DNA from: Clostridia bacterium
Lineage (GTDB): Bacteria > Bacillota > Clostridia > Christensenellales > DTU072
DNA length: 64,000 nucleotides
NCBI GenBank assembly: GCA_024685275.1
Contig: JAIKVY010000246.1
Coordinates: forward strand, 10 to 64,009
Direction: 5' to 3'
Below the pieces are notes generated by a model. The model ran no database searches. It was not told the DNA's origin and saw nothing but the letters and a program-made list of their open reading frames with translations. The stretch's first letter is position 1. Every line of letters begins with the position of its first letter. The translations under genes and the position numbers were made by a program. Below, piece after piece: positions 15,781 through 58,103 of this stretch.

Positions 15781-15858
15781 ATGAAGAATAGAAAAAAGTT
15801 TTTATCAGTATTTATTTTAATTGTCTGCATAGTACTAGCACTATGCATGGTTGCATGT
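15781..15858 (+). other. Lipoprotein signal peptide with lipobox (cleavage before Cys26)
   Basis: MKNRKKFLSVFILIVCIVLALCMVAC|SERV has a basic n-region, a hydrophobic core and M-V-A-C. It is followed by a G/S linker, NNQGGGSSSGSGQ. Confidence 0.8.
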
Positions 15859-18800
15859 AGTGAAAGAGTAGCAGAAAATGAAGAAAACAATCAAGGTGGC
15901 GGTTCTAGTTCAGGATCAGGACAAGTTGTTGATATCAAAACAGAACCATTAAAGAGTTTCAACGATTTTACAAAAGCAGTTAAGGATTCTTTTGCTGATG
16001 ATTTGGTTGATAAAGGAAATTATGTTGAAGAAGATCAAAATTGGTTAGACATTAACCTTGTTCTTGAATATAAACGTCATGCATATGAAAAAGAAAATGG
16101 TGTTTACACATCAACAGCCAAGAAAACAGTTCATTTCAGAATTATCATTCAGATGAAAATATCCCTTAGGGATAATAGCCAAAGTAGAGCGCTTATTGAG
16201 CTTAATGATGTCTCGAGAAACGTTACCTATCTAGGTTTCTATTACAACAACTCAACAACATATCTAAATGTTGGTGGAAAAAAATACTATACAGAACAAA
16301 TTAACTTAACTGCAATTGGAACATTATTAGTTGATGCTCTTAAATTGACTAATTCTGCAGATAAGACAGATATAGTAGGAATTGTTGTTGATGTCTTACA
16401 AGGTGTAATTCCAGTTGAGTCTATTCAAGGCATTTTATCAACAGCTTGGAAGTTATTCTTGTTCAAAGGCCCATATGATATTACTTATTCAACAGCAACA
16501 ACAACTTTTGATGCGCAGGATGATCAAGGAAGAGTTCAAAAGTACACATACCCAAGATATAGATACATTAACGAATATTTGAATTCAGATTTCATTTTCG
16601 GAATGATTCATCAAGGAAGAATTAGTATTTCTATTGCAAATATTGATTATAAACTTGCATGGACAGAATTTGGTTTACCAGATTTAGACCATATTCTTGA
16701 AGATGTTATTGGGTTTGGTTTGAAAGATATAGTTGAAAAAGATTGGCCAAAAATGAAGATTAGTCTTCATGCTATAACAGAACTTAAGAAAACTAAAAAC
16801 GATGATCCAACATATCATGCTTATAATTATGCATTCAATGGATTTGGTTTGAGTGTTTTAACCGATACTGGAGAATATGATGTCTCTTTGGAAGTAACAC
16901 CATTTGTATTTGGTATAAGAAAAGAAAGTGGAGTTAACGTAGAACTTGGTTCATACAGTTTGAACGATAAAGGAACTGTATATAAGGCAGGAAGTTTTAC
17001 TAACCTTGAAGCAAATCTTAGATTAAGTTTTGATAGTGAAGAAGGCGAAAAATTAACCATCAGTTCTTTGATTGGCAGTAAGGTATTTGATTTAGGCGAT
17101 TTAAGTTCTATGCCTATTAATATCCAAGAAAAAACTCATTACACATTTGATATTGGAATATCCGCGTCACTAGATTTGTTTGAAAATAAGAATAATTATT
17201 TGGATGCAAAAATCAAATACAATGGAAAGAAGATAATAGGTATTTACCTTGTTCCAGATTTAACGCAGACAACAGTTGCTGGTCGAGGAAAATATTTGAG
17301 TTCAATTTATTTAGATTTTGGAAATTTGACAAGTGGTGGACAACCATTCTTCCCATCCACTGTAATTACAGGAATTGATTTAACAACTGCATTATCAACT
17401 CTTATTGGCGAAAATATAATGGGCATTTTAGACCCGTATAGAGGAAAAACCACAGCGACAAGAAATGCTGAAGGCGAAGAAGAAAAGAAGGGTGGTCTAG
17501 ATGTAATGAAATTGATAGGTCTATTAATCTCTGAAAATATAATGACAGATGATTTTGGAAATATCTCTTACGAATACAAATACATTACATTGCCAAAGAA
17601 AAATGGAAGCAAAGTCTTAAAATTTGCATTTGATAACTATGCTATTAACACCATTGTATCAATGTTTATACCAAGCATTACTCCAACTATTAATAGTGCA
17701 GGAGAAACAATATACGAAGATGGAATTGGAATTAAAGGATTATCACTAAGCTTAGATTTTGCGCGACCATTTGATTCAATTAGATTAAATGTTGATATAT
17801 CAGAATATACATCTTTATCACTCGGTATTGGATCAACAAATGCCGATGGAACATATAACACTGGCCTATCTTATTTTGAAATACCACATTTTGATTTATC
17901 AGCAGTAGGCCTTGATTCTAATTTAAAAGTTCCAGATGAAGCAATTGCTAAGAGACTTAGAGGTGAATATAGAGACTTAGATGCAACTTTATCTTATACT
18001 GCTAGTTTGTCAGGAATAATTGAAATTGGATCTACTGAAAACACTGTAATTAATTTAGATTCTCTTGTTCAATACGTTGTTGAACAATTCTTAGATAATT
18101 TAGGGTTATTAGCTCAAATTAAGATTAACTCATCAAGTAATTTGAAGATTAAATACGTTGTTCAGTTAGGTACTGCACTTAGCAACTTAGGAACATCTAT
18201 TTTAGTTTTAGATTTGTACTTGCTAGATGAAGAAAATAAAGAAATTTACACTGCACCTTTCCTTGAATTGTATTATAGGGGAGACACAGACACTATTTAT
18301 ATCACAACAAAAATCAACAATGAAGCTAATATGGTTGACCAACTTAGTTCGCAACTACCATTTATCAAGATTATAGATGGTAATATCCCTAACTTATCTA
18401 TTTCAAATGTTGGAATAGCGAACATGTTAAAAGGAAAAGGTTTTGATATAAGGCCTTTATTTGCAACAATTGGAAAAGATATTGGATCAGGCATTAATAT
18501 TTCAAATGCTGATGTTACACCTACTGAAGATGGTGCTGATGTTGGCGGCGGAAGTAACATTCTTAACATAATTGGCGGAGCATTAAAGGGTATTAATGTT
18601 GAAAATGGAATGCTCGGAATTGTTATAAACGAAGATGTATTAACGATTCTTATGGGAATGTTGAATGTTGGAATTAATGGTGGATTGCCACAAATAAATG
18701 CTCATGTTGATTTACAACTAGGTACACAAAATGAGCTAACAGATAACGGCGAATATTTATACAAGATTACTCATACGGAAAAAGAAATAGATGTAACAAC

Positions 18801-21800
18801 AATTTACTATGTTGATAAAGAAACTGGAGAAACAATTGATTATCAAAATAAAAATGATTTTGGTGAAAACATTGTTTTAGATTCAGAAAAATATACAACA
18901 TTAAAAGTAAACGAGTTATTAAAAGATCACGAGTTTGTAAGAGTTCATTTAGGAATATTAGATAGTAATGGAACAAGAAAAGAAGCGTTCTATATTGATT
19001 GGACTTTAATCGACACAATAAATATTACAAAATCAAATTCAGCTAAACCATTAGCAGCATTTAGTGCTGCAGCATATGTTGATTTAAAGAATTGGGTTAA
19101 TACTTTAGTTGTTTCTGTAAATGTTGAATTGGAATTAGGCATTAGTGCGACAGAAGAAGAATACAATTATACAGATGCATATAACCTCTTATCAGCTTTA
19201 CAATTAGCTGGTCTTGGAGACGCTATTACTCAATTAGCAAAAACCTTACAAATACATGTTGATAACAGATATTTAAAAGAAAATGGCGATGGTGTTGGAA
19301 CACTTTTAGGATTAGCAGTAAAAGGAAATGTAAACATCGGTAATATCTTTGATAGTGAGGTAAGCGTTGTTTTATTTGATAAAACAGTACTTTTACCAGA
19401 TGGTTACAGAGCATCAGATGGAAATACTTATCAAATTATTATTGGGATTTACGTAAAAGATGGCGATGGATATGTCGATTTATCATATCTAGGAGTAAAT
19501 CTTGTTAAAATTAATGACCTTTCACATACATATCAAGGAGTTTTAGCATCAGAATTTGATGCATTATGGAAAGAAAGTTATGAAGAAGTAACAAATTCAG
19601 ATGGCACTCAATCAACAACTGCGTTTATAGATTATGAATATCTATTAAACGAAGTTTATTGCCAAGCTATTTTAGACGAATTCTTGTCTAACCAATATCA
19701 TGAGTATGCGTTTAATGAAGCGACTGGAAAGGGTGAATGGGAAACGAAATATCCTGTATCTAATTATAAGTACATTGTATACAATGACAAACTATTGAAA
19801 GCTGGCCCAGAGGCAGATCAACCTAATTTGTATTATGGAAATTTAGAGGACGATTACATCATTTACATATACGAAACATCAAAACTTATTAATTACTTTG
19901 ATATAGGAACCAATGATAATATTCTCAGATTAAAGAAAGGGTATTCATCATATTTAGTTAATAGCAATGGAACAATAACTGTTAAAAAAGGCAATCAAGA
20001 GGAACAAATTAATACAGTAAACGGAGAAGGTGGTATTCCTATTACCATTAATATCTGGGAACTTCAAAAAGCGATAGAAACAAATGCATATGGTGGATCT
20101 ACATTTGGAGATGGAACTATCTTCTTAAATAAAGTTAAAGCTTCAGCATATTCATTATATTCAACAATAGTATCACAATATGCTGGATATTTTGATAATA
20201 CAAACACTGATGACAATCCAGTTGCTCGAAACAATTTACTTGCAATGTATTGGGAAATAGTAAATGATCAAAAGGAAATTTGGGAAGTTAAATATACAAA
20301 TTCAAGTGATTATTTAACAAGTGCATCTGATTTATCATCAAGAGCTTTAGATAATATTAGAAGTAGATATCCAGAATATAGAGATGCATCAGCTTTAGTA
20401 ATAAGAGAAACAAAATATTACTCTGATGAAATGGAAGTATTGAGAGAGGCTTTAGTAAGAGATTATATAAACGGCTTGGTTTCATCAAATGGTGTAGAAA
20501 CCATGTCAAATAATCTTCTAAAAGCAATAACTGTAATGAAGTTTATGAAGAACAGTACAGATATTGTATTCAATATTGAAAATGCATATGGAGAATATAT
20601 TAAAGCACAAAATCTAGAACTTTCACCAACATCTAGCACAGAAAAATCATCAATTTCAATTGATGGTAAAATAGCTCTTAAATTGATATATGATAGAGGA
20701 GCTATCACATTAGAATTAACAAAGAATGTCTTTGAAACATTATTAACAGCTCTTGGCTTTGGAGAAGTAACAAATTATATTTCTATTGATTATTTAGGAT
20801 TAGGAATTGATTTATCGGATGGATTAAAAGTTCAAATTAAACTACAAGTTGAGGATACATACAGCATTTCACTAGCTATTAATGAATTAAAGGCAAGTTT
20901 AGATGAAAGCAAACGTGAAGATTATGGTTTTGTTATAACAAAAGACTTTACAGAAGGTGGTACAATTGAAGGTATTCCAAATGCTTTCCAAGTACAAGCA
21001 GCTATTGAAATATCTATAGAGAACATATTAAAACAAACGAATACTACTGGAATAAATGATTATGATTTAACGGCATTATTGACAAGATTATTTGGTGGTT
21101 CAGCATTTACAAGAACAGAATTAAGCGAGTTCTTGGCAGAGATAACAAAATTGAATCCTGAATTAACAGAAGACGCTGTAAAAGCAGAAGCATTTAGACG
21201 ATTAATTAGCGATAGTTTAGGAAACGAAAAGAAAACAACTGAAATCAATACTAGAAGTTCTGAAGCTTACACTGAAGCATCAAAGAATGGTGCTCAAAGA
21301 GATTCAGTAGAACATTTATCATTAGCTTGGGATAAATTAGTTGATGGAGCTATTATTCTTGATATCGGAGCTTTGGGTATCGAATTCTTAGTTCAAATTA
21401 TTGGAGATATTAAAGCAGTTCTTACTATTGAAGCTACTGCATATATTGATATTACAGAAATAAGATCAAGTAGTTTACAGGTAGTTTTAAAGAGAACTAT
21501 AGGAAATGAAACAGATGTTGTTCTTACTCTCTATTATGATGGGCGTACAAACACAAGTAAGACAGAGTTTACTGGAGACGTATACATTTCAACAAAGATA
21601 TTTGATATAGGCAATATCAAATTAACAAATGTATCTGCAATTTTCGGAGATATGTTTAAAACATTCAACAGTGAATTTATTGGAGATGTACAAAATTCAG
21701 TATATAAGTTCTTTGGAATAGAAAGAACAGAAGCATCAGGACAAACTCCATCAAACGCTTCAAGCGAAAAAATAAATGCAAATAATGCTGATGGAATGGT

Positions 21801-24800
21801 GACAGCAGCGACAATTATTAATTTAACATTTAATGATTCAAATATAGGAATATCACTAGCTAAAGCATCAATACTTAATTTAATTTATGTATTCTTGAAT
21901 ATTGATTTATCTGAGCAATTATCAGAAATTACTATGGGCTTAGGTATTGATTTAAGATTTGATAAGGATTTATCTGTTTCCGTTGGTATTGATTTAGGAC
22001 ATATTGTTAGTAGAAATAATGAAGAATTAGCTGCTATTATGGATTCTGTTTTAGAAAATAGAGATGGGAATAAGAGTAGTGCTTGGCAAGAATTACAAAC
22101 CATGCTTGTAGAAGTATTGCAACAAGAAGAAGATATATCACCAGAAGCAATAGTAGAAGCCTTTGATACTATCTTAAACGATATTAAATCAAACAATGTA
22201 AGTAAATATGGGACAAAATATTCAGATTCAGAGCTTAGAGAAGTTGCTTGGGATACGGTGTATTGGTTGAGCAAAGGAGTTACTTATGATGAAGCTATAG
22301 AAGTATATCCTGAACCTGGTGAAACTGAAACTAGAATAACCATTGATGTATTCAATATTTTAACCGGAGAACTCATAGATATAAATGGAGATGAGACGAA
22401 AGTTTTAATAAAAGTAGGTAAAATCAACGCTAGTATGAACAAAACTATGCTTGATCCAGATGTTGACTTTGTTGGATTTAAAGAAATGTCTCAAATTGCA
22501 AAGATTGGTCTTGCTTTAGGTGGATACGCACAGTTTGAGATTTCTGGAAATGATAACGGAGAATATAGCTTTGATTATTTGTTTGAATTAGTATATAAAC
22601 AAATATTCGATAACAGAGATCCTGATATCGGATTCCAAGTTGATATAAACGCAAACGATGTATTTGCTCAAACAAACTGGATTGATATTAAGGCAAATGT
22701 TGATTTAACAAAATTAAAAGATTTATCAAATATTGAATTGTATTTATCAATTACATCAGACACAAACCACAAGAAATTTGAGCAATTATCAAAGCTAAGA
22801 GAGTATTTAAAATCTATTGAAGAGGCAAATAACTCATACTACAATGCATGGAATTATGCACATAATGCTTCAATATACCAACAAGGTAATTCAGATTTTG
22901 AAAATCTAGCAATATTAAATGACTATGAACATAATTATAAGGCCTTAGTTGCATTAATGGATGATGTATATGCAAAATATAACGCAATGTACCAAGTATC
23001 ATCTCAAGAAGAGTTATATGAAAAACTATGGAAGCAATTATATGGTATAGTTGGTGACTTCTATTTAGGAAATGTACTTGGATTATATATCATATTAGAT
23101 GATAATGGCGTAGGTAATATTTATTTAGATTTAGCATTTTTAGGAATAGAACCTGTTGTATTAAAAGATGTATCAAAATTCCTCACAAAAATAGGTGAAA
23201 GTTTTGAAATAGATTATCAAAAATTCTTAGATGGATTATTTGGTGGATCAAGCAAAGAAGAAGATGAAGAATCACCAAATAATGCGTATGGTGTTAAAGC
23301 TAAGAATGCTGATGATGAGACTTCTTTAGCAGAACTTGCTCAATTATTAGTTTCTATTAATGCAAATAAAAATAACACATTCTTATTAGTAAAAATTACA
23401 AGTGCAGCTATATATGCATTACTTGAATCTTTTGGTGTTAAAGATATCAAAATGTATTTTGGTGAAGAACCAGAAGAAATAGCTGAAGATGATACAATGA
23501 TTTATCCACAATATTCTCCATCTGGAGAAATTAGATTATTTGGATATCATGAAGATATTGAGGATAATGTTGTAGTTAAGAGATGGTATGATTTATTAAG
23601 CGTCGGTGTTAAATTACAAAATCTAATGTTCTTAGATATTGGTATAATTCAACCTTCATTGGATATTGTAAGGGGAGATATTAGAATTTTACCAAAAGAA
23701 TTTATAGAACAAGACAATAAAGTTGTTTCATATTACACAGAACTTGATGAATGGGAAACAGACTTAAGATTATCTATGGATGGAAGTATAGATGTAATTG
23801 CAGATATGATTACAAACGCTGAAACTGGTTACACAGATGATATTAATCAAATGAATTTAGGACCATTCTTAAGAGAAATATTAGGCGAGCAATTACAATT
23901 AGATATAATTTTACAAACGTTAAGTGATATAGAATTAGATACTCATTTCAATTTACAAATCTCAGTTAATATTCTGAGAATATATCAAGCTTTACAAACT
24001 GATATGTCTAACATGGGAATTGGAGATTATATTGGATTAGTTGGTATTATAGCTCCAGAATTATGTTTGGAAATAATTTCTAGAGATGTAGATACACACA
24101 AAGAAACAGTAATAATGGGTATATATTTGATTAAAGAAACAAATAGATATGGAGAAGAATATTTATCTTTATATGTTGATTTAGGCAAATTACATATTTC
24201 ACCAATTAAAGTAACAAATTTAGTAAAGGTAGCTCCATTATTAATTAATAGTTTCTCTCAATTATTTGCTAATGAAGAAGAGGCTGAAAATGCTGAAAGT
24301 TTACAATTATTGACATATTTCTTAAATTTAACAAGCAAAGCTAGTGAAATTTCTAAATCAAAAGATATTGATTTAAATACGATTAGAAATAGCGCAAAAG
24401 AATATGTTGAATCAAGCGATTTTGTAAGTTTGAGAGAATTAAATAAATTATATGATAACAATGCTAGTGAAGAAGTAATTCAAGAAAAAGTAAATGAAAT
24501 AGTAGATGGCGTTACTAGAGCTAAGAATGCAGAAAGAGAAGCAAAACCTGTTGAAGACTTTATTGCAGTTGTTGTCGGAAATGATTACGGATTTACAATA
24601 GAAGCTGTTGCAGAAGTTTTAATAAAGATTCTCGACGAAGCATTTAATGATATAAAGACAATTGAAAGACGTTCTTTCGAACACATGATGAAAGATGTAA
24701 TTTCTGACGAAATTGAAGTTGAAGCTAGTGGATATAATAGAATTGTAGCTCAAATGAGAACATTACTAGAAGATAGTGATGGGGAAAAGAAATTAGCATG

Positions 24801-27800
24801 GTTGAACGTTATAGAAGAAAGTAGTAATTATTTAGATAATGCGGATAATTTAAAACTAGCAAATGATCTTTATACATCTATTAATAACGTTAATAGAGCT
24901 ATTTACAATAGCAGATATTCAGAAAACAAAATATATGATGTTGCATGGGATGCTTTATTATGGATGTTCGCTGGAATTTCATATGAAGACGCAACTAAAG
25001 TTTATCCAATAGATGCTGGTGGTGATTTAACAGTAATAACAATAGATATATTCAATAGATTAGTAAATGGATACATTAAAATTGAAGATGACGGTGTTCA
25101 AAGTAAATATGATGAATTAAAAGAAAGCGCTAATGACGAGCAAACCATGGATAATGCAATATTGATGAGAGGCTTAGAATACTTCATGTATTATTATGAA
25201 GCAGATGCTTTTGATAAATATGTAGAATATATAAATCAAATGCTTTTCTATATTAATAAATATAAAACAGCACATCATGTTGATGAAGTGCAAGATACAA
25301 GAGTAAATAATGTAAGAAAAGCTGAAGCATATGATGAATTAATTATTAATAATTTCTTAAAGAAAGAAGATAAAGACATATTCACAGCAGAATTTAATAA
25401 GAATTATAGTATTTTAGTAAGCGGGAATGAAACAGTAGCAAAAGCCACCACATGGGATACAATAGTTTCATTCTTTAATGGTGCTTATACCAAATTAGTA
25501 TCAGCTTTAGATTACGTAAATACTAAAGCGAAAGAAATATACAAAACAGAATTTAAAGATAAAGAAAACGATGATTTACCAACTGTATTTAATATCGTTA
25601 ATAGAACATATAAATATGATGCAAATCAAAGTGAAACAGCAAATACTACGTACACTTATAATTCAATAGTTACTATTTTATTCAAAACAGTGGCTTGGGA
25701 ATATTTATTTATAAGTGGACAAGCAGAAAATACAGATGCTAGACCATATAAAACATTATTTGAAGATTTGGCAATCAAAGAATCAAGTAATACACAAGGT
25801 GTTATAGGACAGGCACAAGTAAAAGAATATGCGTGGGAAAAATTAAGAGAAGATGCAGAAAACGTTGCTAAAGGCGTATATCCATATATATTAAGAAACG
25901 ATATAGTTTTAGAAGTAAGTGAAACAGAAAATATTAGTAAATATGGTTTTGGATATACTGTATCTTATTCAAAGAGCACAAAAGATAAAGAGCATGTATG
26001 GGCACTTTACGTAGTAGATACAAACATAGCTAATACATTTGAAGCTTATTTATTGTCAGGTAGTTCAAAACTTCCAGAAATGGTTGTTGAGGCTGCTCAT
26101 GGAACAGGTTCAGCAAAGATTGCATTATTAAATGAAAATAGATTAATAGCTGTAGAAGCAGAACTTGGTAGATTTAAAGTTAAACTTGCATTTAATAGTG
26201 CTGGTTTATATATGTCAAAGAAAGATCTAGTAAAAAATGTTCAAAGAAATAAATTGAATTATGATGAATATACCGAAATTACCGTAGCTGAATTTTTAGC
26301 AGAAGATGAAACAAAATATGCAGAATTTGATGAAAAGAGTCAATACGTATATGCAAAACTAGATTTAGATTTAGAATTAAAAGAAGAACAAACTGATTTC
26401 AATTTCACAGAATTAGTTAGCACTTTACTTGATCAAATTGGTGTTGATTTAGTTATCAATAATAATCAAATTGGAATTGAATTATTATTAAAATTATTAA
26501 CACATCTTGATTCTAAATTTAGATTATCAGTAGAAGCAAGAGTAAATCTATTTAGCTTATTTAAAGGTGATTTATCTACAACAGATATCGCATTAACACT
26601 TTATTCAGGGGAAGGATATAGAGACGTTGTTTTACAAGTTGTTTTAGGATCATATGTTGATGTAAATGATAATAAAGAAAAGAACTTCGTATTTGTAGAT
26701 TTAAGTAGATTTAACATTCAACCATTAATTATTTATGATGCAATTAATTATGTTAGAACACTTCTTGATTCATTAAATTCAAGCAACGCTACATTCTCAC
26801 CATATGATTATAGATACGCAAAGAATGGTGCTGAATTATTTACAGATGTTTTAGCATATGGAATCATGCATACAGCAATGAATGCAGATAATAGTGAAGA
26901 ATATGAAAAGATAGTTCTTGGTTTTGATGATCCTACAGGAGTTGGTGCCTCAATAGAATCTGCAGCAATTTATGTAATTTTGAACCTATTAGGAATGGGA
27001 CAAATTAAAGATTATCTAGAAAAAGCAGCACACATTACTTTAGAAGCTAATATATTTGGTGTTCCAAACTATAGAGATGGAATGAGTTATTCAGATAAGT
27101 ATAGAGACTTAATTAGATTAAGTTTAGCATTAAAAGCATTTGAAGAAGATGGCGGCGTTTCAGCAACGACTGGATTAGAATTAGATTTAGGTATTCATGG
27201 AATAGAATTATCATTGAATCAAAAGAAATATATTCTAGACTTAGATTCTGTTGAAAACCTACAAAATCATTTATTACCGGAAAATTATGCTGAAATTAAT
27301 AATAGCTTACCCCCTATTATTTTATCAACAACGATAATGTTGAATATAGCAGGTGCAGAAACAGAAGAAAGCAATATTAATGTATCACCAATTTCAAATC
27401 TTTTAGATACAATAAATCCAGATTTGTCACCAAGCTTGTCTAATATTATAGGACAAATCTTGTTAAAGATAGTTGATAATAACGCAATGACTGTTGCTAT
27501 TGATTTGAAAGCACAAATATCTTTAGGAAGAGGTGAGGATACAGATTATCTCAACCATATATTAGAAGAATCTATTATTAGAATAGCAATTAGAGCTTGG
27601 TATACATACGAAGAAACAACATCTGATAAGAATAAAGAATGGGCTGTAGTAACATATAGTAATGGTAATTTATATATCGACTTAGAAAATCTTAATATCG
27701 ATAAGATTATGATAAGAGATGCTACAAGCTTAATAATGAAGAAAGACGAAGAGACTCAAAATGCATGGGCAGAAGTAGCTAGATTGTGGAAAGCTGCAAC

Positions 27801-30800
27801 AGGAGACACATCAATTGGTATAGAAGTTGATGCAATTCTAGGAACTCATGGATTGTATATTGCTATGCAAAAAGCAGCAATTAAATCAATAATAAATATA
27901 TTTGGATTTGGTGATGCATTAGTATTTAGAGATGATTTAATTCAAATATATTTGGAAACTAGAAGATTAGATGAAGATCTTTGGATCAATAACAACAAGA
28001 CAATAAGCTTATTTGCTGGAGCAAATATTGCATTCTTGAAAAATGGACAATTTGCTATAGATTCATTAGCAACAGGGCAAATATCAAGTTTAAATCCAGC
28101 AATATTAATTAATTTAGGTCTTGAAGGTATATATATTGGATTTGAAAATAGAGAAAATTGGGATGTTGATAGTCCAGAAAAATATATAGAAGTAAATGAT
28201 ATTAACACAATTAGATTTGGAACAAACTTAAGCTTAGATTTCAGTGATAGTACAGGTATTTATGACTTTAGGGAATTGTTAAATTCAATTCTAGATATGA
28301 CTGATATCGATTTAGCAGGCATTGGTATACAAAAGGATATTAGATTAATATTAGATATTGTTCAAGCAGATATAGCTAATGTATCGGTTAATGCAAGTGT
28401 ATCAGTATATTTAGGAGATTTAATTAGTTCGGCGTTAAGCGGAGCTGGAATTAATATTGATATTGACCAAATAATTGAGAGATTACAGGCAAGTATTGAA
28501 ATTGTATTCAAGAGAGATAATAGCGATGAAAAAGTAACTTCTATTAAGATAGTTTATATTAGAGGCGATGCATACATTGACTTATCTAACTTAAACAAGA
28601 ATTTAGGTAAGGCAAAGGTTGAAGGCGTATTAGATTTAGTTTCTTCTTTAATAGGAGGAAATAGTGAAGCAGCCGAAGCAGCTAATGGATTTGTTAAAGT
28701 AGTTAATGATTATGTAAATTCATTTGTAGCAAAGAATGCAACAGAAGCTATTACACTAGAAGATATAACCAAAACATATATCAGTTTAGCTATGAGTGGA
28801 CAAACCGGATTAGAAATATTGGTTGTATATGGTGCTGTACAAGCCGCTATTAGATATTTATTAGGAAGTGAATCTATTGCTGAAGTTATGGCTATAGTAG
28901 CAACAGCAAGTAACCCATCTTTATCTTTGAATTTAAATAAAAAGGTAGAAATAAGAGTTAATTTAAGTGTTCCATCAAGATTTAAAAATGATGATCAATA
29001 TATAAAATTGACAGCAATAGAAAAATCAATAGAAGAATACTATGATATAGCTGAGGGTATCACGTACGAAGAACAATATTTATCAAGTGGTTCGCAAACA
29101 ATATTCTCAGATACAGTCGGGAGTGGTGAAGATAAAACAATAAAGACTATTATTGAAGATGTAATTAGCAAGTCTTCATTATATAAATTGTTTAATTTAA
29201 CAGATTCAAAGAAGAGTGCGATTGTAGATCAATGGGAAAAAGATGGATTATTGTCATCAATTAATATTAGAAATTATTCAGTAACTGAATGGTTGAGTAG
29301 ATTAGATGCAAAATACATGTTCTATTCTCGTAATGATTGTAAACCACTAGTATTTAATTTGATTGCTTTATATTTGTATGAAGATAAAGCCTCAATTAAC
29401 TTTAATAACTTATTTAGCAACACAATAACAGGATTAAACGTTAGTGTTGATACAAGCTTATCATTAACAGAAGATGAACAAGTTGCTCTATTGCAAGAAT
29501 TAGGTAATTACAAGAAAGTTGAAGGGGAAACATATTATACATTATTCGAATTCTTTAGTGAGTATTTCTCTGGAGAATTTGAAAACGATGATGTTAAGGA
29601 TAGTGATTATAAGACATTTATTAGAGATATTGCTATTAATTACATTAAAGGAGCTATTACATTAAATGCTATTTGGCTTGAAAGCTTAGAAGGCGAAATT
29701 AAAACAATTAGTTTAGATGGTTCATCATATATTATTCACACAGCAAAATATGATGAATATTATGATAAATTGTTAGTAAAAGCATGGGATAAATTAATAG
29801 AAAACTTTGAAAACAAACTTGGTTTAGGGACTATAACAAATAATGAATTGTTATTATATGCTATTGCTCAATTTTCATATGAAAAAGCAAGGAATATCCT
29901 TGATGATAATGCAAGTGAATCAGAGATAAAGAGTGAAGCTTATAATCAATATGTTGAATTTGTTGAAGAATATTCTATTTTAGATTATGAGGGATTGACT
30001 GAGACAACAAATGGAAAATTAAAACAATCAATTATATACAAGAATCTTTTATATACATATTTAGATGCTATTGATGTTGAATTATTAACGGGTATTAATT
30101 TTGATAGTTTCACAGGAAGTTTAAGTAGAACTAAAGAAGAATTAATTGGAGATATTAGGGACATTGTTAAAGGTATTTTATATGGAGTTAGAAAATATTC
30201 ATATGATTTATTAACAAATGTTGATTCTGAATATAGATCTGATTATGAAAGAGTAGTTTTAAGTAGTACAGCAGAACTTGAATTTACATACGATGTTTTA
30301 TATGATATAAAAAATATATATCTAGATGTAATTGAATTATTTGGACAAAGTGATTCAGTAAGTGCTGCAAGAACTATCTTAGTTGATATAGGTCAATATT
30401 TATACAATGAAGAATCAACAATACAGGAAATTACAAGTATCACCAATCCATCAGATTTACATTTATTAAATGCAGCAATAGCTATTTTAGAAAAATACAG
30501 TGCATTATTTAGTAATTTATTTACAGTACAAGATGTTTCAAATTATGTAAATAACACATATAGTGCAGATAGTTGGGATAGTTTATTTGATACATTTGAT
30601 TTCAATGCATATGATACATTTGATGAATTAAAACTTGATGTATTGAGAATTTATTATGAAAATCAATTACAAGCATATGATTTTGGTGCGCTTTATGATA
30701 ATTTAACAATCAAGACATATGAAAATATCTATTCAGTAATTAAAAATAAATATGAAAATGCATTAAGTATTAGGGATGTTAAAGATTGTGATGAGATAAG

Positions 30801-33800
30801 AGGTAAATTATTTAAAGCATATGCTGGTCCAGGAGATAATACTTGGGATAACTTAATATACATTTTATCTAACTACTATTTTGCATACCATAATGCTAAG
30901 AAAATCATTCTTACAGAAGCAAAGACAAATGTAAACAAATACTTAAAGTTATTAGTAAATAATGGAACTGCATTTACTATTGAAAATTATAGTAATACAT
31001 TTAATGGTGAGATTATTAGTTTAAATCTATTAAATGATTACTCAAGTGCAAATATAGTAAATATGGCTCTCGCATTTTTAACAAATCAATATGTAGATAT
31101 TAGTGATGTAAATACTTTAAGAAATATTAATACCACATTTACACAAGCTAGCTCTGATGAATTAGTGTTATATGCAGGATGCTACATTATTTATCAAGAA
31201 TTAAGTGATAATGATACTATTAAAGCAAAGATAGCTAAAGCATATAAAGATTATTCAGAAGGCAATTATGTTAATGGCTTACAAGATGTAAATATTAATT
31301 CTATTCTTGTTATTTTAAATAAGATTTATGAAAGTCTATCGTTTGAAGGAAAATCGTTAGCAAAATTAATAGTTTCGCAATTAATTAGTGTTGGAACAGC
31401 TATTGATCCAGATATATATTTAAACACAGACGAAGAATTAAAAGTAGAAATAGAAAAAATTAATAAAGATTCACTTGTTAAAGAAAGAGCATATAATTTT
31501 ATGATAAGTAGTTCAATTGATTTAGAAATGTATACTCAATTGAATTCTGTAAAACAAAGCATTATTTTTGAACTAATATATCTAAATAATCCACAAGATA
31601 GAAATGATATCAATAATGTATTATTATCATTCTGGAATGGAACTTTAGCTGATGTATTAGTGTCATTTAAGAATAATAAGGCACTTTTAACTGAGACTAA
31701 TATTGATATTTATTATCAAATGTTTGGAAAGATATTCTCAGATACAGCAAAAGAAGAATTATATAAATTATTTACTGAAGTTGATAGCACAACAGGAATG
31801 TATAGACAGATAATAACTATATTTGATAATTTGGTACAAGACACATATGTAGATATTATGACTGATTATGATAAAGCTGTTGTGGTTAGTCGTGTATATG
31901 AAAAACTAAGTGAATATTTACCAGATAACGTAGCAGGAGCACAAAGCGCTGGATATAATGCACTATATGCATTTACAAAGATATTTGTAGATACAATATA
32001 TGATTTCATTAACATTGATTTTGAGGCAATGATAGAGAATATTTTACTTAGCTATGATGATGCTAAATACAAGAATTTAACATCTAACGAAGTATTATCA
32101 TATTATCAAAGCGTTATTAAAGTTGTTGAAGATCAACTTGAAACAATGATTTTCAATCAATTTAAAGATCAAATCAAAACATATGCAGCAAATGAAAATA
32201 ATTTAATTTATCAAGTTGAGAAAACTGCAAAAGATTTCTTGTATATCGATAATGCACCAGTAGGCACACTTGGAGAAGAAGATGAAGGAACTTTATCTGA
32301 TATAACAACAAGTTATAATATTAATCCTGATAATAAAGTTGAAAAGGATGGCGATGACGTTGTTATATATACCAAGGAAGGAAATAATTATAATAAAGTA
32401 ACAGATACAAGTTCATTGACCTCAGGCCAAAAGACATATAACAAATATGATATTACTGCTAAGATTGTGGTTAAATTAGTTCCAACAGTATGTTCTAATA
32501 ATAGTTATCAATTCCCACTAAATGCACCACTAGGATTAACAAGTTTATATACAACTTTACAAAAAACTGTAGATATCACAAAAACAGGACAAAAAGTAAT
32601 AATTGATGGAACAGGATATACTGTATTTGTTGGCTGGGTTGATGACCAAAGCATATTAAGAAAAGATGAAAATGATGAAATTGTTAGCGATGAATTTATT
32701 AAAGAATTAACTATAGAATTAACATATGAAAATTGTGCATGGTTAAATTCAACAGATAACTCATGGGGCTCTGGAAAATGGAGTAGTTATTTCATTGATA
32801 CAACAGATAGTGATAAGAATAATAAATTAAAAGAATTAGGTAATCAATTTATTGAAAAAATAGAAACTGAGCATTCTGATTGGATTTCGGATGCTGTAGC
32901 TAATGCGATTAACACGTTAAAAGCTGAATATTATCAAGCCATACAGGATGTATTAAAATTAGTAGATCTTATAGTCGGAACTGAAGCTGCTCCAGCTGGC
33001 GTAACAGTAGAAACAATAGAAGATAAAGTTGGTTCAGCAACAACATCAGTTGAATTATATGAAAATGCATCAAAATTAATAAAAATCATTTCAGAATGTG
33101 AAAGAATATCAGGAAATGATTATGGTAAAGCTAATTATGAAACGATGTATTCATATAAATTAAATGCCCTTGTTGATTTCTATAATGGGAAAAATGTTGG
33201 AATAAAAACAAACTTCTTAAAAGAAGTTATGTCAGCAACTAACTATAAATTAGCATTTTTAGATTTGGATGAAGTAAATAGTTATAACTTAAATATTATA
33301 GTTGGTGGCATTGAACTTGCTAATTATATAGATATCATTACTAACCTTTCAGAAGCAATGATAGAAGGGTATTTAGAAAGTGAAAATATTGAAGTATTAA
33401 GAGCTAAAGAAAGAAAAGATGTAAGTTCATACTTAGAACAAACACTTAAAAACACATTGTTATCATTTGATGCTGCTAAATATAGAAAAGCATTACATAT
33501 CTTTAAAGAAAAGATGGAAACAACGTTTAACAATAATAATGGTTTCGTTTTCTATTCAGATAGCGACACAATAATTAAATCTAAGAGTAATTACAATTAT
33601 TCACAATTAATAGACAAGATTATTAAAGATGGTGAAAGCATATTATTAAAGAACTATGTTTCAGAAACTAATGCTGGGTATTTGATATTAAATAGTAGAA
33701 TTAATGCTACAGGACAAAAGTTTGGTTCAAACGAAAATTGGTTTAGATTTGCATATAATTTAGTAAAGAGTCAACAATATATTAGTGCTGAAAACTGGAC

Positions 33801-36800: not shown

Positions 36801-39800
36801 AATTGAAGCTTTAATAAGAGGTTCATCAAATGAAATGAGTATCGTTTTGACAGCGGATATTTTAATTGAAGTATTAAGAGCATTAATAACAGATGAATCC
36901 GTTATAGAAAACGTTTCAAACTTGATTTATGTAATCATAACATCAGGAGAAATCGAGATAGAATATGGAAAAGACTTTGGTATTAATTTGAACTTAAGAA
37001 AGAACTTAACACAATCATTAAGTGGTAAGACTAACGTTTCATATAATGTAAATCTTGGATTACTCAAAGATACAGAATTCTCAATGAATAAGAGCGTAAA
37101 GGTAAATGGAATTATTCAAACCACAGAAAACGAGAAATTTATTAACTTCTCTAGAGAATTAGAAACACTTAATAATAGTGGATTCTTTAATAAGTTCCAT
37201 ATTATGACATTAGATGTTGAAAATCTATTGAATACAGCACTCAATGGTGGAGCTGTTAACTTAGATATTGCAACAACATTAGGAAAAGTATTTGGTGATA
37301 GAATCCAAATTGGTATAAGTTTAGAATTTAATGCTGATGTTATGAGAACAATTATTGACTGGAGTGAATTGTTTGGAGTTTTAGGCTCATTAAATATTAA
37401 TCCAGCGTTCTACTTAAGAGTATTTGATAACTTTAAAGGAAACATTAGATTAGATTTATCATTAGACTTTAACGTTGCTTTGTTATCAACTGCTATTAGC
37501 GAAGATGAAGATAGAGTATATAATGCGTTCGATGTTAAGTTAAGAGCATATAGAGGAGATTTAAACATCTTTAACATATATGAATTATCTGGAGTTTTGA
37601 ATACTACAAAAGATAATCCAATATTCTCACCTACATTCTACATGGACTTAGGCGATAGTGGTCCAGAAAAGTATAAAGTTTCATCTAAAGATTTATATGA
37701 ATTCTTACATATTAACTTAGTTGAAATGATGTTGAATATTTTAGGATCTGATGCACATGCTCACGTTGATATTTCAGATGCAAGCAACGCTGATGATGAA
37801 GAAGCACTTAGTGATACTGAACAAGGAATATCAGAAACAATATTAGGATTCGAAGGCGAAAATATTGCAAATCTTGACTTTGGTAAGATTTTAAAGAGTA
37901 TTACCTTTGGTGAAGGGAAATTGGGTATTAGATTGAGTGAAGCTATCGCAAACGAATTAATTAAGATAATTAACAAGAACTGGACATTCGCTGAAATTGG
38001 TAACTTCTCACTTGATATTAACTTTGTTGATAATACAATAGCTCTTAACATTCCACTTGATGCTTCATTAAAAGATTCAAATGGTAATGAACTTGAAAGA
38101 AGTAAATTAAAATATGGTGTTAAGATTAGTAATTTATATGTTTACTTTGGAACAGTAGTTGACTTCTTAGGAGACAATAAGACAGAAGAAGATTTATTTG
38201 CGGATTATCCTGATATTAATGATTATGTATGGATTGAAGAATCTAATTTATCATTAAAGATAACTGATGATGCTAATACTATTGTTGACTTATCAAGTGT
38301 TACATCAAATATTATGTCAGGATTAGAACTTCAAATATTAAGTAATGAAGATATGCTTGATGTAGGTTTAGGATTAACATTAAGAACATATATAGATTTC
38401 TCTGATTTAGCAAACTTACAATTTGAATTAATTATTAAGATAAATGGAAACAGAGCAATTTCAGTTGCATATGTTGGATCAATGGATGATGGAAATGTTT
38501 ATCTAGATTTATCAGGTATAGGTTATCCACAAGTTTATTTGTCTGGTATAAAACTTGGAGATATGCTTAATGATATATTACAAAAATTGTATGATTCATT
38601 TGATAAATCACAAAATACAATAGATTCAAGCAATGCTGCTGGATATGTAAGCGGATCAATATCTAGTGGAGAAGCTACGGCAATTAAATATCCAACAATT
38701 GCTAACGTTGGTATAGGAAATAATATTTTAATAGCTTTAATCGATAGAGATTTGTTTAACGTCGCTATGTCAGGAGCTTTATTAAAAACTCTTATCGGTT
38801 CTTTAACATCATCATTAAACTTCATTCCTGATTTTGCTAACTTACAAGTTGGATATGAACACGATGTAATAAGTGGAATTAAACTTGTTTATGATGAAGG
38901 ACAACATTTTGCTATATCGCTCAACTTTGAACATAGTTATACATACATGGTAACAAGCAAGAACTTAAATGCTAATGTTGAAGCTAAGAGCCATATGCCT
39001 CTTGCTGGAGTTAATAAAGCAGATTATGTATGTATTGATGAATTGAAGAATTTATATCTAAGTCTAAATCTTGAATTATCACTTATAACCATGAATCCAA
39101 ATGGAGATAAGAGTGATACCGTTGAAGAATTAGAAGCTTTATTAGAAAACTTGCTTGGCATGAGTGCAAATTCAGTTGATTTACAATTCCAAGATGCAAA
39201 TGTAATATTAGGCGTTTCAGTAAAAATTGGATTTGATTTAACAAATTATGCAAATTCAGTATTAATCATAGAGATTACATATAACGATGAAACGATTATA
39301 GGTCTTTATTATGTTGAAGGTCAGTTATATGCATCATTATCAGGTTTAGGATTATTTGATATAAAACTAAATGCTGTAGATATTATGAGTGCCTTAAGCG
39401 GCATTTTAACAGGAACAGGATTACCTATTACAAGTGAAGGAATAAAGATAAAAGAAATAATTCTAAATGCTATTAGTTTATTAGAATCTGGCGCTAGAGG
39501 AACTGCTACATGGTCAAAAGATGTTGAAAATACATTAGGTATTGATGATGAATATGCTGAATATTTAAAACAATATAAAGAGAAACACGATAATGGAGAA
39601 TATGAACAATTAACAGCAGCACAAACTGAAACAATAAAATCTACTATTAATAATGAATTAATAGAAATGAACCAAAAATATGGTAATGTATGGAACAGTA
39701 CCAAATTTAGAGAAAAATATGATGAGGTAATGGATACTATTGGATTTGGCGAAGTGGTAGCAACAGATGCTATAACAAAAGCAGGTGGCGTAATAACTGT

Positions 39801-45800: not shown

Positions 45801-48800
45801 TCAAATGAATAAAGCTGTTACAGATATTTTAGTAAGCTATATTCCATTGACAGTAACAAAAACACAAATGGAAAGTGAAAGTTATGATTTATTATATGAA
45901 TCAACAACAAAATATAACATGTTATTCTTAAATAGCATTTATGAAGAAGTAAGCAAGAATCCATTAAATGCAACGACAACTGCTAAGAAAGCAGCTGCAT
46001 GGGAATATTATTACAACTTAGTATCTTCAAAATTAGATGAAAATAGCAATGTAAATCCATATTATGATGTTAAAGTAAAACAACAATTAGATAGCATTTA
46101 TTTAGGTGTACAAGTTAAACACTCTACATTAACATATAATGGAGCTAAAGCAAGATGGTACAACAATACAATTCAAGCAAATGCTGGAGTAATTTCAATT
46201 AATAAACTTGAAGAAGTATACAATACTATAAATAGAAATATTGCTAACGTTCAAAAGACTGTTACAGAAAAGAAAGCATTAGCATATGATGAATGGTACA
46301 ACAATTATACAAGAGGCGAAATCATATTCTACAGAAAAGTAGATGAAAAGATTTTAACAGGTGCTAATTCAATCGTTATTAACGTAGCTGATAAGATGTC
46401 AATAGATAGTAGTGATATTGGCAACAAACTTGAATTCTATTTCAATGGTTTAACAGATGAAAGACAAGCAATTGATGTAATTTGGTATGATAAGGATAAG
46501 ATTGTAGAAAATATTAATAAGAATATTGGATACAATGGATACTTAACATATGGTGATGTTGTAATATTTGATCCATTATTTGGTAACCAAACAAGAAAGA
46601 ATTTAATTATTCAATTAAGTTCAATCGAAATTGTTTCATTCGGTATATCAGCAGCCCTAATGTACAATGGTGACATTGAGAAATTCTTACCTGAATATAT
46701 TATTGAAACAAGCCCAGGCGTTTCATATAGTTATAAAGTTGAATTTAACCCATATGATGAAAGTAGCATTGCAAATCTTTTACAATACTATTTATATGAT
46801 ACAAATGTATCACATTATTACATAATAACATCCACATCTACAGGCGAAACAAAAATAATTAACCAAATAGAAGATGGTGTTAGAATGTTTAAGTTTGCTA
46901 CTGATTCTCAAGGTATGCCAATTTGGAAATATAAGAATGATACAAATGGCGATGGAGATTACACAAATGATGGTTTAAGCTATGATGGAAAGACATATAC
47001 TTCTATTTTAGTTTTAGTACAAAGTGCTAACTATGATGAAGAAAATCCAAGTACACCAAAATGGTCAGCTTGGGTAGAATATGACTTCAATCATGCTTAC
47101 TTTAATGATGCTTCACTTGCTCAAGACAACAGAGTTATAGATTCTACTATTACAAATATAACGAAATTCTACGTTGATGGTTTAAGCGTAGGAACTGATA
47201 TTAGTAAGAGTGGAGATAAATATTATATAACCATCGATCCATCTATTGTTGATTTGTCAAAAGGTTTAACATTTGATGTTGTGACAAAAGGATATAGATT
47301 TATTCCAAAATCAATGGCTGGTGGAGTAACTGAATTTACTAATAGCGACTTTACAAACGTAATGACATTAGCTGGTAGAATAGACCTTGATAATATTGAA
47401 AACTTCTACGAAAAGACATATATTGATACTCAAATTGTATTTGGTGACAAGGTTAACACAATACAAAGAATCAATATAAGATTAATAAATAGTGCTATTT
47501 CTACTATTAAAGAAGCAACAGAAATTATTTACTATGATAAAGATGATAATGTAATAGACTTTAATACTCATGCATATACAGCATTTGAAAATCTTTTAGA
47601 TAGTCTCCCAGTTAGAGCAGATGTAACTGGATTAGTAAATGGATTAAAGAAGACAATATCTATACCAGTTAAATGGGATTATATTGAAGAATATACTAAG
47701 ACAAAGGTAATTGACGATGTTACATATAGAGTAAATAGCCAAGAACAATATCCAAAAGCAAGAGCATATATTGGAAGCAAGACATTTGGATACATTGTAA
47801 GAGAAGTTGAATTAAAGATTAAACAAGAAACAATAACAAGTATTACTGGATTACCAGAAAGAAATACAATAAATGTTGATCCATACAGTAATACTAAGAA
47901 GATGGATGATTTTGCAAGTATTTATACTCAAGCAAGAATTACTACAAGCTTAGGAAATGAGTATGATGTAAGCATTGTTATAGATTCATCTAATATTGAT
48001 TACATGTTATATAAAGAAAACGACTTTGAATCTCAACAATTTACAATCTACTTTAATGTTGGTAATACAGTTAAAACAGAACATTCTAACTTCGATATTA
48101 GACAAGGTTATCCAATTACAGCGATATTAGAGTCTAGAAAAGTAGAATCAATTAAGATATTTGATGAATCAGGTGAAGAAGTATTAGATCCTGTAGGAAA
48201 TATGTATAATCAAATAGACTTTAGTAAATATCATTATGCGGTTATTTACGGCAGCGGAGCAGATGCTGTTAGAGTTGATGATAGTGATGTAACGATTTTA
48301 GGAACTGAAGATATCGAATATAAACCAGCTGGTGGTAGATTCACCATTAAGGCTACAGTAGGTCAAGGAGATTTATTACAAGAATCTCAAATTGAAGTTG
48401 TTATTACAAAAGCTGAATTAATTACTATCGTATATGATGGAGAAGAAAGTGAATTATCTAATACTGGATTTGGTTTAGGAGACGATAATAAGAGCGATTC
48501 TAATAAGATGCTTTCATATAAACATACAACTCTAACTGCTGGTCAAGAATATTATGAATTAGAAAGAATTGTAATTGAACCATTTATTGGATTTGTAGAA
48601 TATGGAAAATATGTTGAAAGCGATTCAATAAAATATGGAGCTGGAATAACGAACACGTCAAGTATTGATTATACTAAGTATGGTTTACCAAATACAATTA
48701 CAGCATGCATTAATATTGGAAACAATGAATATGAGACAATTGAGCTTAATGTTGCTTGGGATTACAAGACTGTATTAGATGATATGACATTAAATGGTGG

Positions 48801-53368: not shown

Positions 53369-53395
53369 TTAGCACTTGAGATATTCGAGTGCTAA
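53369..53395 (+). promoter_or_regulatory. CIRCE operator (HrcA binding site)
   Basis: TTAGCACTT-GAGATATTC-GAGTGCTAA compares with the consensus TTAGCACTC-N9-GAGTGCTAA. It has one mismatch and exact 9-nt spacing. It sits between the -10 and the htpG RBS (GGGAGG, 53401-53406). Confidence 0.85.
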
Positions 53396-53412
53396 TTTAT
53401 GGGAGGCACAAA

Positions 53413-55263: not shown

Positions 55264-55293
55264 TATCACAATTATAATCAATCAATTTCAACA

Positions 55294-55326
55294 ATATGGC
55301 TAGCTAATAACTAGCCATATTTTATT
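55294..55326 (+). terminator. Rho-independent terminator after htpG
   Basis: ATATGGCTAG-ctaataa-CTAGCCATAT forms a perfect 10-bp stem, followed by TTTATT. Confidence 0.8.
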
Positions 55327-55376
55327 AACAATCTATAAATTTGTATTATTTAACCTAAATGAAGTATAATTATCAT

Positions 55377-55898: not shown

Positions 55899-56101
55899 TG
55901 AATAACAATCTATTTGTATTCTTATGTTTCACGTGAAACTATATTCTATAAATATACATTTTTAAAAATAAACACTCCCCTTCCCTACTCTACCCTATTT
56001 CTTTTTATAATACCAATTTATATATAATCTACTCTCTTGTTTTGTATTTTTGATAAATATGATTATAATTATAAAAAGAAATATTAATTATGGTGGTAAT
56101 T

Positions 56102-56554: not shown

Positions 56555-56592
56555 TGCTATCGTTTCATTAGTACTAATTTATATTCAGAATG

Positions 56593-56619
56593 TCCTTGGA
56601 GAAATCCAAGGATTTTTTA
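56593..56619 (+). terminator. Rho-independent terminator
   Basis: TCCTTGGA-gaaa-TCCAAGGA forms a perfect 8-bp stem with a GAAA loop, followed by TTTTTT. Confidence 0.8.
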
Positions 56620-56648: not shown

Positions 56649-56691
56649 TAAATCAAATAAAACTAAATTATAATAAATTAAGGAGGCGATT

Positions 56692-57216: not shown

Positions 57217-57230
57217 TAGGAGCCTACATA

Positions 57231-58088: not shown

Positions 58089-58103
58089 TATTTAGGAGGA
58101 TTT

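Follow-up and report, generated by a model that had tools for sequence, protein, structure and literature searches.

A repeated strand-helix element and the module it probably closes in a giant, putatively lipid-anchored protein of uncultured Christensenellales

The 64,000-nucleotide stretch analysed here (the window) comes from contig JAIKVY010000246.1 of the Clostridia bacterium assembly GCA_024685275.1, positions 10 to 64,009, and has a G+C content of about 29%. A single open reading frame (ORF) on the + strand, 15781..53232, occupies much of it and encodes a protein of 12,483 residues, its translation carrying one terminal stop. Here, we describe a 21-residue strand-helix element that recurs along this giant protein, following each of 13 copies of a second motif, the junction, in constant order and paired one to one. 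A first-pass annotation of the DNA had pointed to both motifs between 17461 and 37980, an interval that lies entirely within this ORF, and all the strings that it quoted are present where it had placed them; its linker strings start at residues 560 (TRNAEGEEEKK), 907 (ISNADVTPTEDGADVGGG), 1998 (INANNADGMV), 2507 (KAKNADDETS), 2831 (ANEEEAENAES) and 7333 (DASNADDEEAL). Residues of the giant protein are numbered as (nucleotide - 15781)/3 + 1.

Each unit, as listed here, runs from its junction (centred on a conserved Tyr or, once, Phe), through a linker holding one or more Asn-Ala dipeptides (N-A), to the end of its strand-helix element, for which the first residue is given in brackets.

17293..17676, + strand: U1; junction 17293-17349 (Tyr510), N-A at 17464 (TRNAEGE), strand-helix element 17614-17676 (from residue 612; VLKFAFDNYAINTIVSMFIPS)
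18283..18672, + strand: U2; junction Tyr840, S-N-A at 18505 (ISNADVT), strand-helix element 18610-18672 (from residue 944; MLGIVINEDVLTILMGMLNVG)
19456..20763, + strand: U3; junction Tyr1231, insert of ~400 residues, N-A at 20083 and 20581, strand-helix element 20701-20763 (from residue 1641; AITLELTKNVFETLLTALGFG)
21568..21903, + strand: U4; junction Tyr1935, N-A at 21754, 21775 and 21784 (PSNASS, NNADG), strand-helix element 21841-21903 (from residue 2021; NIGISLAKASILNLIYVFLNI)
23107..23442, + strand: U5; junction Tyr2448, N-A at 23281, 23305 and 23359 (AKNADDE), strand-helix element 23380-23442 (from residue 2534; FLLVKITSAAIYALLESFGVK)
24157..24651, + strand: U6; junction Tyr2798, N-A at 24289, 24460 and 24526 (AENAES, AKNAERE), strand-helix element 24589-24651 (from residue 2937; GFTIEAVAEVLIKILDEAFND)
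26677..27000, + strand: U7; junction Phe3638, N-A at 26785 (SSNATF) and 26881 (AMNADNS), predicted hairpin and helix ending at 27000 (element from residue 3720; GVGASIESAAIYVILNLLGMG)
27658..27912, + strand: U8; junction Tyr3965, N-A at 27760 (TQNAWAE), predicted hairpin and helix 27826-27912 (element from residue 4024; SIGIEV / GLYIAMQKAAIKSIINIFGFG)
28558..28869, + strand: U9; junction Tyr4265, N-A at 28735 (AKNATEA), strand-helix element 28807-28869 (from residue 4343; GLEILVVYGAVQAAIRYLLGS)
36559..36894, + strand: U10; junction Tyr6932, N-A at 36769 (VYNAAKQ), strand-helix element 36832-36894 (from residue 7018; EMSIVLTADILIEVLRALITD)
37624..37980, + strand: U11; junction Tyr7287, S-N-A at 37786 (ASNADDE), strand-helix element 37918-37980 (from residue 7380; KLGIRLSEAIANELIKIINKN)
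38485..38811, + strand: U12; beyond the interval first annotated; junction Tyr7574, S-N-A at 38632 (SSNAAGY), strand-helix element 38749-38811 (from residue 7657)
39313..39879, + strand: U13; beyond the interval first annotated; junction Tyr7850, N-A at 39370 and 39466, strand-helix element 39817-39879 (from residue 8013; SFLISPKSEALSSLLGMDIPA)

Nine of these element copies had been quoted before (residues 944, 2021, 2534, 2937, 3720, 4024, 4343, 7018 and 7380), and the copies at residues 612, 1641, 7657 and 8013 are added here. Junction and element are separated by a median of 86 residues; the distance falls between 59 and 104 in 10 of the 13 units, rising to 139, 163 and 410 residues where inserts are present. 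Across 29 paralogous and orthologous copies, hydrophobic residues occupy element positions 2, 4 and 6 in 100, 97 and 97% of cases, and positions 10, 11, 14, 15 and 18 in 90, 100, 97, 100 and 93%, which is exactly the set of hydrophobic positions in the pattern originally proposed; their periodicity is i, i+2, i+4, then i, i+1, i+4, i+5, i+8. The accompanying proposal that the helix ends in Gly describes about half of the copies and is not general: each flanking Gly is found in ~40% of the 29 copies, and Gly occurs at positions 19-21 of the element in six of the 13 window copies.

We assessed the specificity of the element by a leave-one-out procedure, in which 12 copies build a position-specific scoring matrix (PSSM) of the 21 residues and the thirteenth is ranked among 12,211 positions. 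The 13 ranks are 1, 1, 1, 1, 1, 2, 5, 6, 8, 53, 85, 114 and 314, and nine of the 13 units have no better-scoring site than the annotated one anywhere in their inter-junction interval (230-800 residues). The junction motif ranks first or second for eight of its 13 copies. Reduced to a bare hydrophobic regular expression, the element is poorly specific, with 23 matches in the protein against 14 +/- 4 in shuffles. As a separate observation, shuffled giant proteins reach maximum strand-helix PSSM scores of ~10 bits, as against at most 7 bits at real positions outside the 13 copies; since the shuffles score the higher off-copy maxima, the real protein is the poorer of the two in near-matches.

Comparison of whole units shows that the two motifs belong to a larger repeat. 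Using hhalign on non-overlapping units, each profile enriched with its own orthologues, we obtained full-length, collinear alignments with probabilities of 99.9% for U5-U7, 94% for U8-U9, 90% for U7-U9 and 78% for U7-U8, and weaker links for U3-U7 (53%), U7-U12 (39%) and U4-U8 (31%). These alignments were built without the motifs, yet the junction Tyr and the element align with zero offset in six of the seven unit pairs, placing both anchors in exact register. A MAFFT E-INS-i alignment of units cut at the end of the element likewise brings the junction Tyr into one column in 12 of 13 units (and in 20 of 20 and 23 of 23 rows of further alignments). When units are instead cut at the junction, MAFFT does not bring the element into one column, because the linker varies in length, although A-[KMSR]-N-A-[DET] comes into alignment in six units. 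Thus, the anchored unit alignment suggested in the first-pass annotation is borne out by hhalign and by the element-cut MAFFT alignment and fails in the junction-cut one, and its central claim, that two conserved elements in a fixed order mark a true repeat, stands: objectively cut units align both anchors in register in six of the seven pairs, so that the outcome named as refuting it, a lack of consistent order and spacing, was not observed. The units have diverged to at most 25% identity and carry inserts of up to 500 residues; a BLAST self-comparison of the giant protein returns only three weak repeat pairs, and iterative phmmer/hmmsearch searches from one unit did not converge beyond U5 and U7.

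Individual units draw on these analyses to different degrees. The U5 and U7 elements both rank first in the leave-one-out test; U5 matches U7 in the BLAST self-comparison with an E value of 1e-5 and aligns with it in register by hhalign, and U7 is in addition in register with U8, U9 and U12. The U8 element ranks first with 16.6 bits and is matched by four orthologues. Those of U2 (rank 1 and best site of its interval), U3 (rank 5), U4 (rank 8) and U6 (rank 6, best site in an interval of 795 residues) are also supported by orthologues, as is that of U1, which is conserved among them; hhalign adds register of the junction for U3-U7 and of both anchors for U4-U8. U9 ranks only 114, and its hhalign alignments with U8 and U7 are in register, with AKNAT opposite AMNAD. 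In the second group of units, the U10 element ranks first and is the best site of its interval, U13 ranks second and is the best site in an interval of 405 residues, U11 is weakly supported at rank 85, and U12 has both anchors in register with U7, its leave-one-out best site lying one residue off the annotated register. Since whole units align at 99.9%, U5 and U7 are a more recent block duplication. A helical insert of ~140 residues (containing AWDTVYWLSKGVTYDEAIEVYP) is also duplicated, at residues 2083-2223 (22027-22449) and 2988-3123 (24742-25149), with a BLAST E value of 3e-13; its copies sit inside U5 and U7. A possible degenerate fourteenth unit lies at residues ~150-230 (window ~16230-16470), where a junction-like string (STTYLNVGGKKYYTEQINLTAIGTLLVDALKLTNSADKTD) is followed by a helix and N-S-A-D; it is kept in orthologues as STLYLDIGG...YYTEQ and scores low with both profiles.

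The element is conserved between species as well as between units. A word-indexed search of 5.8 billion proteins gave one match to residues 3480-4400, and nine family fragments were found among 1.84 billion representative proteins; for residues 330-2960 there were two longer fragments. A first genome scan with the single protein as query returned no relatives; five loci were then found among 185,579 species genomes, all from uncultured Christensenellales or Clostridia metagenome-assembled genomes, the closest such genomes being CALVYG01 and JBJETX01. From these loci, ~4,000 N-terminal residues were obtained for four additional species, each with a lipobox. One candidate, P0008, proved to be a spurious repeat-protein match and was set aside. 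The family is very rare in public data and restricted to a few uncultured Christensenellales, and a literature search on giant Christensenellales proteins found nothing. For U1-U8, the element stands at a fixed alignment column in every orthologue (up to seven species), at an overall identity of 33-45%. U10-U13 are without orthologue support, because the homologue search with residues 6740-8400 found nothing.

Two AlphaFold models bear on the secondary structure of the element. The first, of residues 3480-4400 with nine sequences, has a predicted local distance difference test score (pLDDT) of 42.5 and was for that reason used for secondary structure only. The second, of residues 3706-4100, used an alignment of 23 contiguous paralogous and orthologous segments with verified anchors and has a pLDDT of 57.3 and a predicted template modelling score of 0.54, with a pLDDT of 72-93 over residues 3845-4005, which comprise the sheet, the junction and the linker helix. 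Both runs predict, for the U7 copy, a strand at 3711-3716 (IVLGFD), a turn, a strand at 3720-3725 and a helix at 3728-3736 (DSSP E6-11, E15-20, H23-31) and, for the U8 copy, a strand at 4016-4021 (SIGIEV), a turn, a strand at 4024-4029 and a helix at 4031-4040 (DSSP E311-316, E319-324, H326-335). The strand followed by a helix that was first read from the sequence is therefore recovered in both runs at low confidence, and since a further strand precedes the element strand in each of them, the element is better described as a beta-hairpin plus helix. By DSSP, residues 3706-4100 of the second model contain ~15 strands and 10 helices, and the unit proper ~10 strands and five to six helices in ~300 residues.

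The unit has no match to a known family or fold. Neither the PDB (best E 0.09; TM-score at most 0.18) nor viral structure models gave a significant Foldseek match, and the many matches to the platform of major histocompatibility complex class I were rejected as noise (E > 0.2, TM-scores ~0.15). A unit profile of 23 sequences had no match to PDB sequences at E <= 10, the same 23 sequences gave nothing above cut-off in Pfam, and the module has no significant match to known adhesin repeat families (FIVAR, GA, Big_1-9, Rib, Cadherin-like and others). A DUF4367/LolA-like assignment was rejected, because it scored 14.8 bits (E 0.04), below the 22.1-bit cut-off, and did so on only one of the 23 unit sequences.

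The linker between junction and element carries a motif of its own. N-A is present in all 13 linkers; the strict form that the first-pass annotation gave for most of them, N-A-[DE], is found in only seven. NA is the most linker-enriched of all dipeptides, with 22 occurrences inside and 37 outside linkers in the window protein (p 1.6e-4) and 67 inside and 59 outside in orthologues (p 6e-11). SNA is the most enriched tripeptide, at 5 against 1 (p 7e-4) and 21 against 3 (p 4e-10), respectively, a 20-24-fold enrichment, and orthologous linkers hold NA in 36 of 39 cases and SNA in 20. From 74 sites, we derive the consensus [A/P/S]-[S>N,L,K]-N-A-[A/D/S]-[G/S]-E-E, in which Ser precedes Asn in only 20; the linker motif is better written [A/P/S]-S-N-A-[A/D/S]-[G/S]. 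Nor are the linkers acidic overall, as had been suggested: their acidic fraction is 0.10-0.20 against a protein mean of 0.144, and the enrichment is confined to the eight residues after N-A (0.227 against 0.148). Small and polar residues are frequent in them, at 46% against 36%, and hydrophobic residues are scarce, at 26% against 37.5%. An N-glycosylation sequon (N-X-S/T) was rejected, the residue after N-A being about equally Ala, Asp and Ser, and also Pro, Gly, Tyr and Trp.

N-A is not one fixed structural position. There are at least two N-A sites, one on either side of a variable linker helix, and the downstream site lies 19-25 residues ahead of the element in U4, U5, U6, U7, U9 and U10. 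In the models, the N-A sites at residues 3701 and 4319 are at or beside the end of a helix, that at 3669 is in coil, and that at 3994 is within the first turns of a helix. Between species the sites shift by a few residues and are sometimes duplicated, the U1 linker reading RNAEGEE, RNAASNASS, RPSNADGEE and RPTNASYLANADDEE.

The array sits within a protein that, by eye and from our analyses together, has five parts. A signal peptide is followed by nine alpha/beta modules with helical inserts (residues ~330-4363), a long helical region, four further modules (residues 6740-8033) and ~4,400 residues of beta-rich sequence on the C-terminal side. Three features lie outside the repeat:

15781..15861, + strand: lipoprotein signal peptide, MKNRKKFLSVFILIVCIVLALCMVAC|SE, with the lipobox Cys at residue 26 (from the sequence)
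28978..35998, + strand: helical region of ~2,350 residues (4400-6740), outside the repeat, splitting the unit array into nine and four
40927-41055, + strand: CarboxypepD_reg domain (residues 8383-8425), the sole Pfam domain assigned in the giant protein

The N-terminus reads MKNRKK-FLSVFILIVCIVLALCMVAC-SE and, with its positive n-region and hydrophobic h-region, has the signal peptide and lipobox of a signal peptidase II substrate. The lipobox Cys is kept in the relatives P0010, P0011 and L003-L007 (LVACSE, FAACSQ, IAACSE, VAACSV), and the residue after it is Ser in all orthologues. Apart from the signal peptide, the giant protein has no hydrophobic stretch as long as 15 residues, and no C-terminal LPXTG sorting signal was found, the protein ending in FSFEVMVRIKKEI. 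Sortase anchoring was rejected: the sole LPxTG string, LPMTG at residue 8423, lies inside the CarboxypepD_reg domain, 4,000 residues from the C-terminus and without a C-terminal hydrophobic segment. Judged from these sequence features, the giant protein would be a cell-surface protein anchored by lipid at its N-terminus, with no other membrane anchor.

A Pfam scan of all 12,483 residues at E <= 0.01 reports CarboxypepD_reg and Big_1 only; an NCBIfam scan of residues 1-10000 has zero matches, and residues 1-8380 match neither library. The helical region has no junction or strand-helix profile match and no family match; it appears to be all-helical and rich in Tyr, Asn and Glu, and BLAST detects no internal repeat in it. 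The ~4,000 residues after CarboxypepD_reg (to 53232) look immunoglobulin-like (Ig-like) or beta-sandwich, yet match no family.

We propose, with a probability of roughly 0.6, that the strand-helix element forms the conserved seam at the C-terminal end of a previously undescribed alpha/beta module, ~300 residues long and duplicated at least 13 times in a lipid-anchored surface protein. Such a module would start with a beta-meander ending in the junction strand (x-Y-h-D-L-x-x-L-G, where h is hydrophobic) and then a helix, to be followed by a flexible small/polar linker of variable length containing another helix, which one or two [A/P/S]-S-N-A-[A/D/S]-[G/S] sites would flank. After this linker helix and a short acidic stretch would come the beta-hairpin, its second strand burying alternate residues (positions 2, 4 and 6), and then a helix of 11-13 residues with one face buried (positions 10, 11, 14, 15 and 18); the module would often end in a Gly-x-Gly stop ahead of the next one. 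The alternation of hydrophobic residues along the strand and the helix face formed by i, i+1, i+4, i+5, i+8 are as expected for a strand within a sheet and a helix lying over it. We infer that the hairpin joins the sheet of the module and that the helix covers this sheet, giving the module its hydrophobic core and linking it rigidly to the next one.

Proteins commonly place Asn or Ser/Thr at helix boundaries and end helices with a Gly-based Schellman C-cap, and both Asn at helix boundaries and a Gly-x-Gly stop fit ordinary capping preferences. The Asn of N-A may thus cap the boundary of the linker helix, with Gly terminating the last helix: Asn, then Ala and acidic residues, is found at predicted helix boundaries, and hydrophobic-Gly-hydrophobic strings (IFGFG, LLGMG, ALGFG) at the end of the last helix. 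A cap normally stays in one alignment column; here, some of the N-A sites drift or are duplicated, and Gly is present in only about half of the copies. We favour a helix-boundary cap or hinge as the role of S-N-A, and consider a processing site less likely.

The array as a whole is probably a long stalk that holds the ~4,000-residue beta-rich C-terminal part away from the cell, in the manner of an adhesin or fibre. Giant repetitive surface proteins of this kind include Ebh of Staphylococcus aureus, built of FIVAR-GA modules, and the SiiE/LapA-type adhesins with Ig repeats. Like them, the protein described here exceeds 10,000 residues, has one membrane or cell-wall anchor at one end, and carries a long tandem module array, probably a stalk, with a different, beta-rich region at the far end. 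It differs from them in its anchor, an N-terminal lipobox rather than LPXTG or a type I secretion retention module, in its ~300-residue alpha/beta modules, which have no Pfam or NCBIfam match, and in the divergence of its copies, at most 25% identical and with inserts of up to 500 residues in place of near-identical tandem repeats.

Several observations weigh against this proposal. The pLDDT at the strand-helix element itself is only 41-54 (41-48 after U8 in the second run), and Foldseek, against both the PDB and viral models, offers no fold match that backs any particular architecture. U1, U2, U6, U10, U11 and U13 have no hhalign link above 30% and owe their place in the array to their motifs. 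The PSSM test carries a caveat, in that only the copy at residue 4024 exceeds the best score of every shuffled 12.5-kiloresidue protein. The drift and duplication of N-A are unusual for a pure structural cap and are better matched by a short linear motif with a function. A role as stalk or adhesin is drawn solely from analogy with other giant surface proteins, and the Pfam scan identified no adhesion domain besides the CarboxypepD_reg-like one. The repetition, its constant order, the conservation between species, the predicted strand-strand-helix structure and the lipobox are shown by these data. The result is a solid description of a repeat architecture and does not in itself establish a function.

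The behaviour of N-A leads to a different account, in which the S-N-A sites are protease-recognised motifs or self-cleaving Asn residues, and a precursor is cut in its linkers into module-sized surface fragments, the hairpin-helix being the first folded piece after each cut. The strong enrichment of SNA in linkers of both the window protein and its orthologues would fit such processing, as would the way in which NA is kept in nearly all orthologous linkers yet drifts and duplicates, typical of linear motifs in flexible regions; N-A is also surrounded by small and polar residues with few hydrophobic ones, in linkers of low AlphaFold confidence. Type I signal peptidases follow a rule of small residues at -3 and -1, which S-N-A, if cleaved after Ala, would resemble. 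There is precedent in the surface adhesins of Mycoplasma (P97/P102/P146 families), which undergo endoproteolysis at S/T-X-F|X-D/E in disordered regions (PMC3322551). The giant protein shares with these a large size, a surface location as predicted, a short conserved motif in flexible inter-domain regions, a small hydroxyl residue two before the conserved residue and acidic residues shortly after it; it differs in having S-N-A rather than S/T-X-F and belongs to an unrelated organism and family. However, no protease gene adjoins the giant gene in the window or in its syntenic relative, some N-A sites fall within predicted helices or at their ends, Ser precedes Asn in a minority of sites, and one N-A site keeps its distance from the element in six units, as expected of a structural position. 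We regard processing as unlikely.

A related and somewhat more doubtful idea takes the module to be a new fold in which S-N-A is functional, the protein being either a polyprotein cut into modules that are retained at the surface or an extensible fibre, tens to hundreds of nanometres long, with S-N-A sites as regulated hinges. If true, it would represent a new surface architecture specific to uncultured Christensenellales of animal guts.

[quoted passage not shown] The giant protein resembles RBG and AsmA-like proteins (TamB, YhdP, VPS13, ATG2) in being giant and membrane-anchored at one end and in having repeated sheet units, each followed by an often helix-containing connector. Clostridia are generally single-membrane, and because the host order belongs to them, there would presumably be no second membrane to bridge, unlike for RBG bridge proteins. 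In addition, the whole protein has no AsmA, TamB, DUF490, Chorein_N or VPS13 match at E <= 0.01, none of these families appears among the 23 unit sequences at E <= 1, and no TamB, VPS13, ATG2 or Lpt chain is among the Foldseek matches listed for the PDB, for a model that is only partly confident. An RBG unit is defined by five antiparallel strands plus a loop, with greater variability among bacterial versions (PMC10345924). The unit described here, as modelled, is two to three times that size and, with its five to six helices, far more helical. We consider this reading very improbable. Finally, a non-specific pattern, produced incidentally by generic amphipathic helices and the local composition of so large a protein, would fit the poor specificity of the bare regular expression, the failure of most single copies to beat the best site of a shuffled protein, and the junction-cut MAFFT alignment, but is excluded by leave-one-out ranks of 8 or better for nine of 13 copies with the annotated site best in nine of 13 intervals, by exact register in motif-free profile-profile alignments, and by column-by-column conservation in orthologues of low overall identity.

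Giant surface proteins are already known; the novelty of this one, from a lineage so far represented by metagenomes alone, lies in its module and linker motif, neither of which is recognised by any family or structure library. With the junction and the N-A/hairpin-helix as anchors, the module can be delimited, opening the way to expression of a single module, solution of its fold and a profile for annotation of the family, whose genes are at present fragmented and left unannotated by gene callers and assemblies. Should the S-N-A sites prove to be processing or hinge sites, they would provide a new case of motif-directed bacterial surface remodelling, in a gut lineage relevant to host health.

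The giant gene lies among housekeeping genes, including those for a CCA-adding enzyme, HPRT, TilS, Fe-ADH, HAD, LOG, HtpG, a thioredoxin system and a Cu-ATPase. Its closest relative (L003; contig CALVYG010000050.1, 1-10000) shares the upstream order of CCA-adding enzyme, HPRT, TilS, Fe-ADH, HAD, LOG and giant gene, with one extra inserted gene of 824 residues, and the more distant relatives L005 and L007 are without that upstream synteny. Downstream, a cluster at 53389-61190 consists of stress, redox and metal genes, encoding HtpG, a metallophosphoesterase, a zinc-ribbon/DUF4190 protein, glutathione peroxidase, thioredoxin reductase, thioredoxin, a MarR regulator and a Cu-type P-type ATPase. 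A candidate paralogue of the 12,483-residue protein, encoded by a second giant ORF at 1-7302 (+ strand), was rejected. This ORF encodes at least 2,434 residues and is cut by the start of the window; its product has no Pfam match and shows a helical N-terminal part, a beta-rich middle and C-terminal beta-helix-like repeats.

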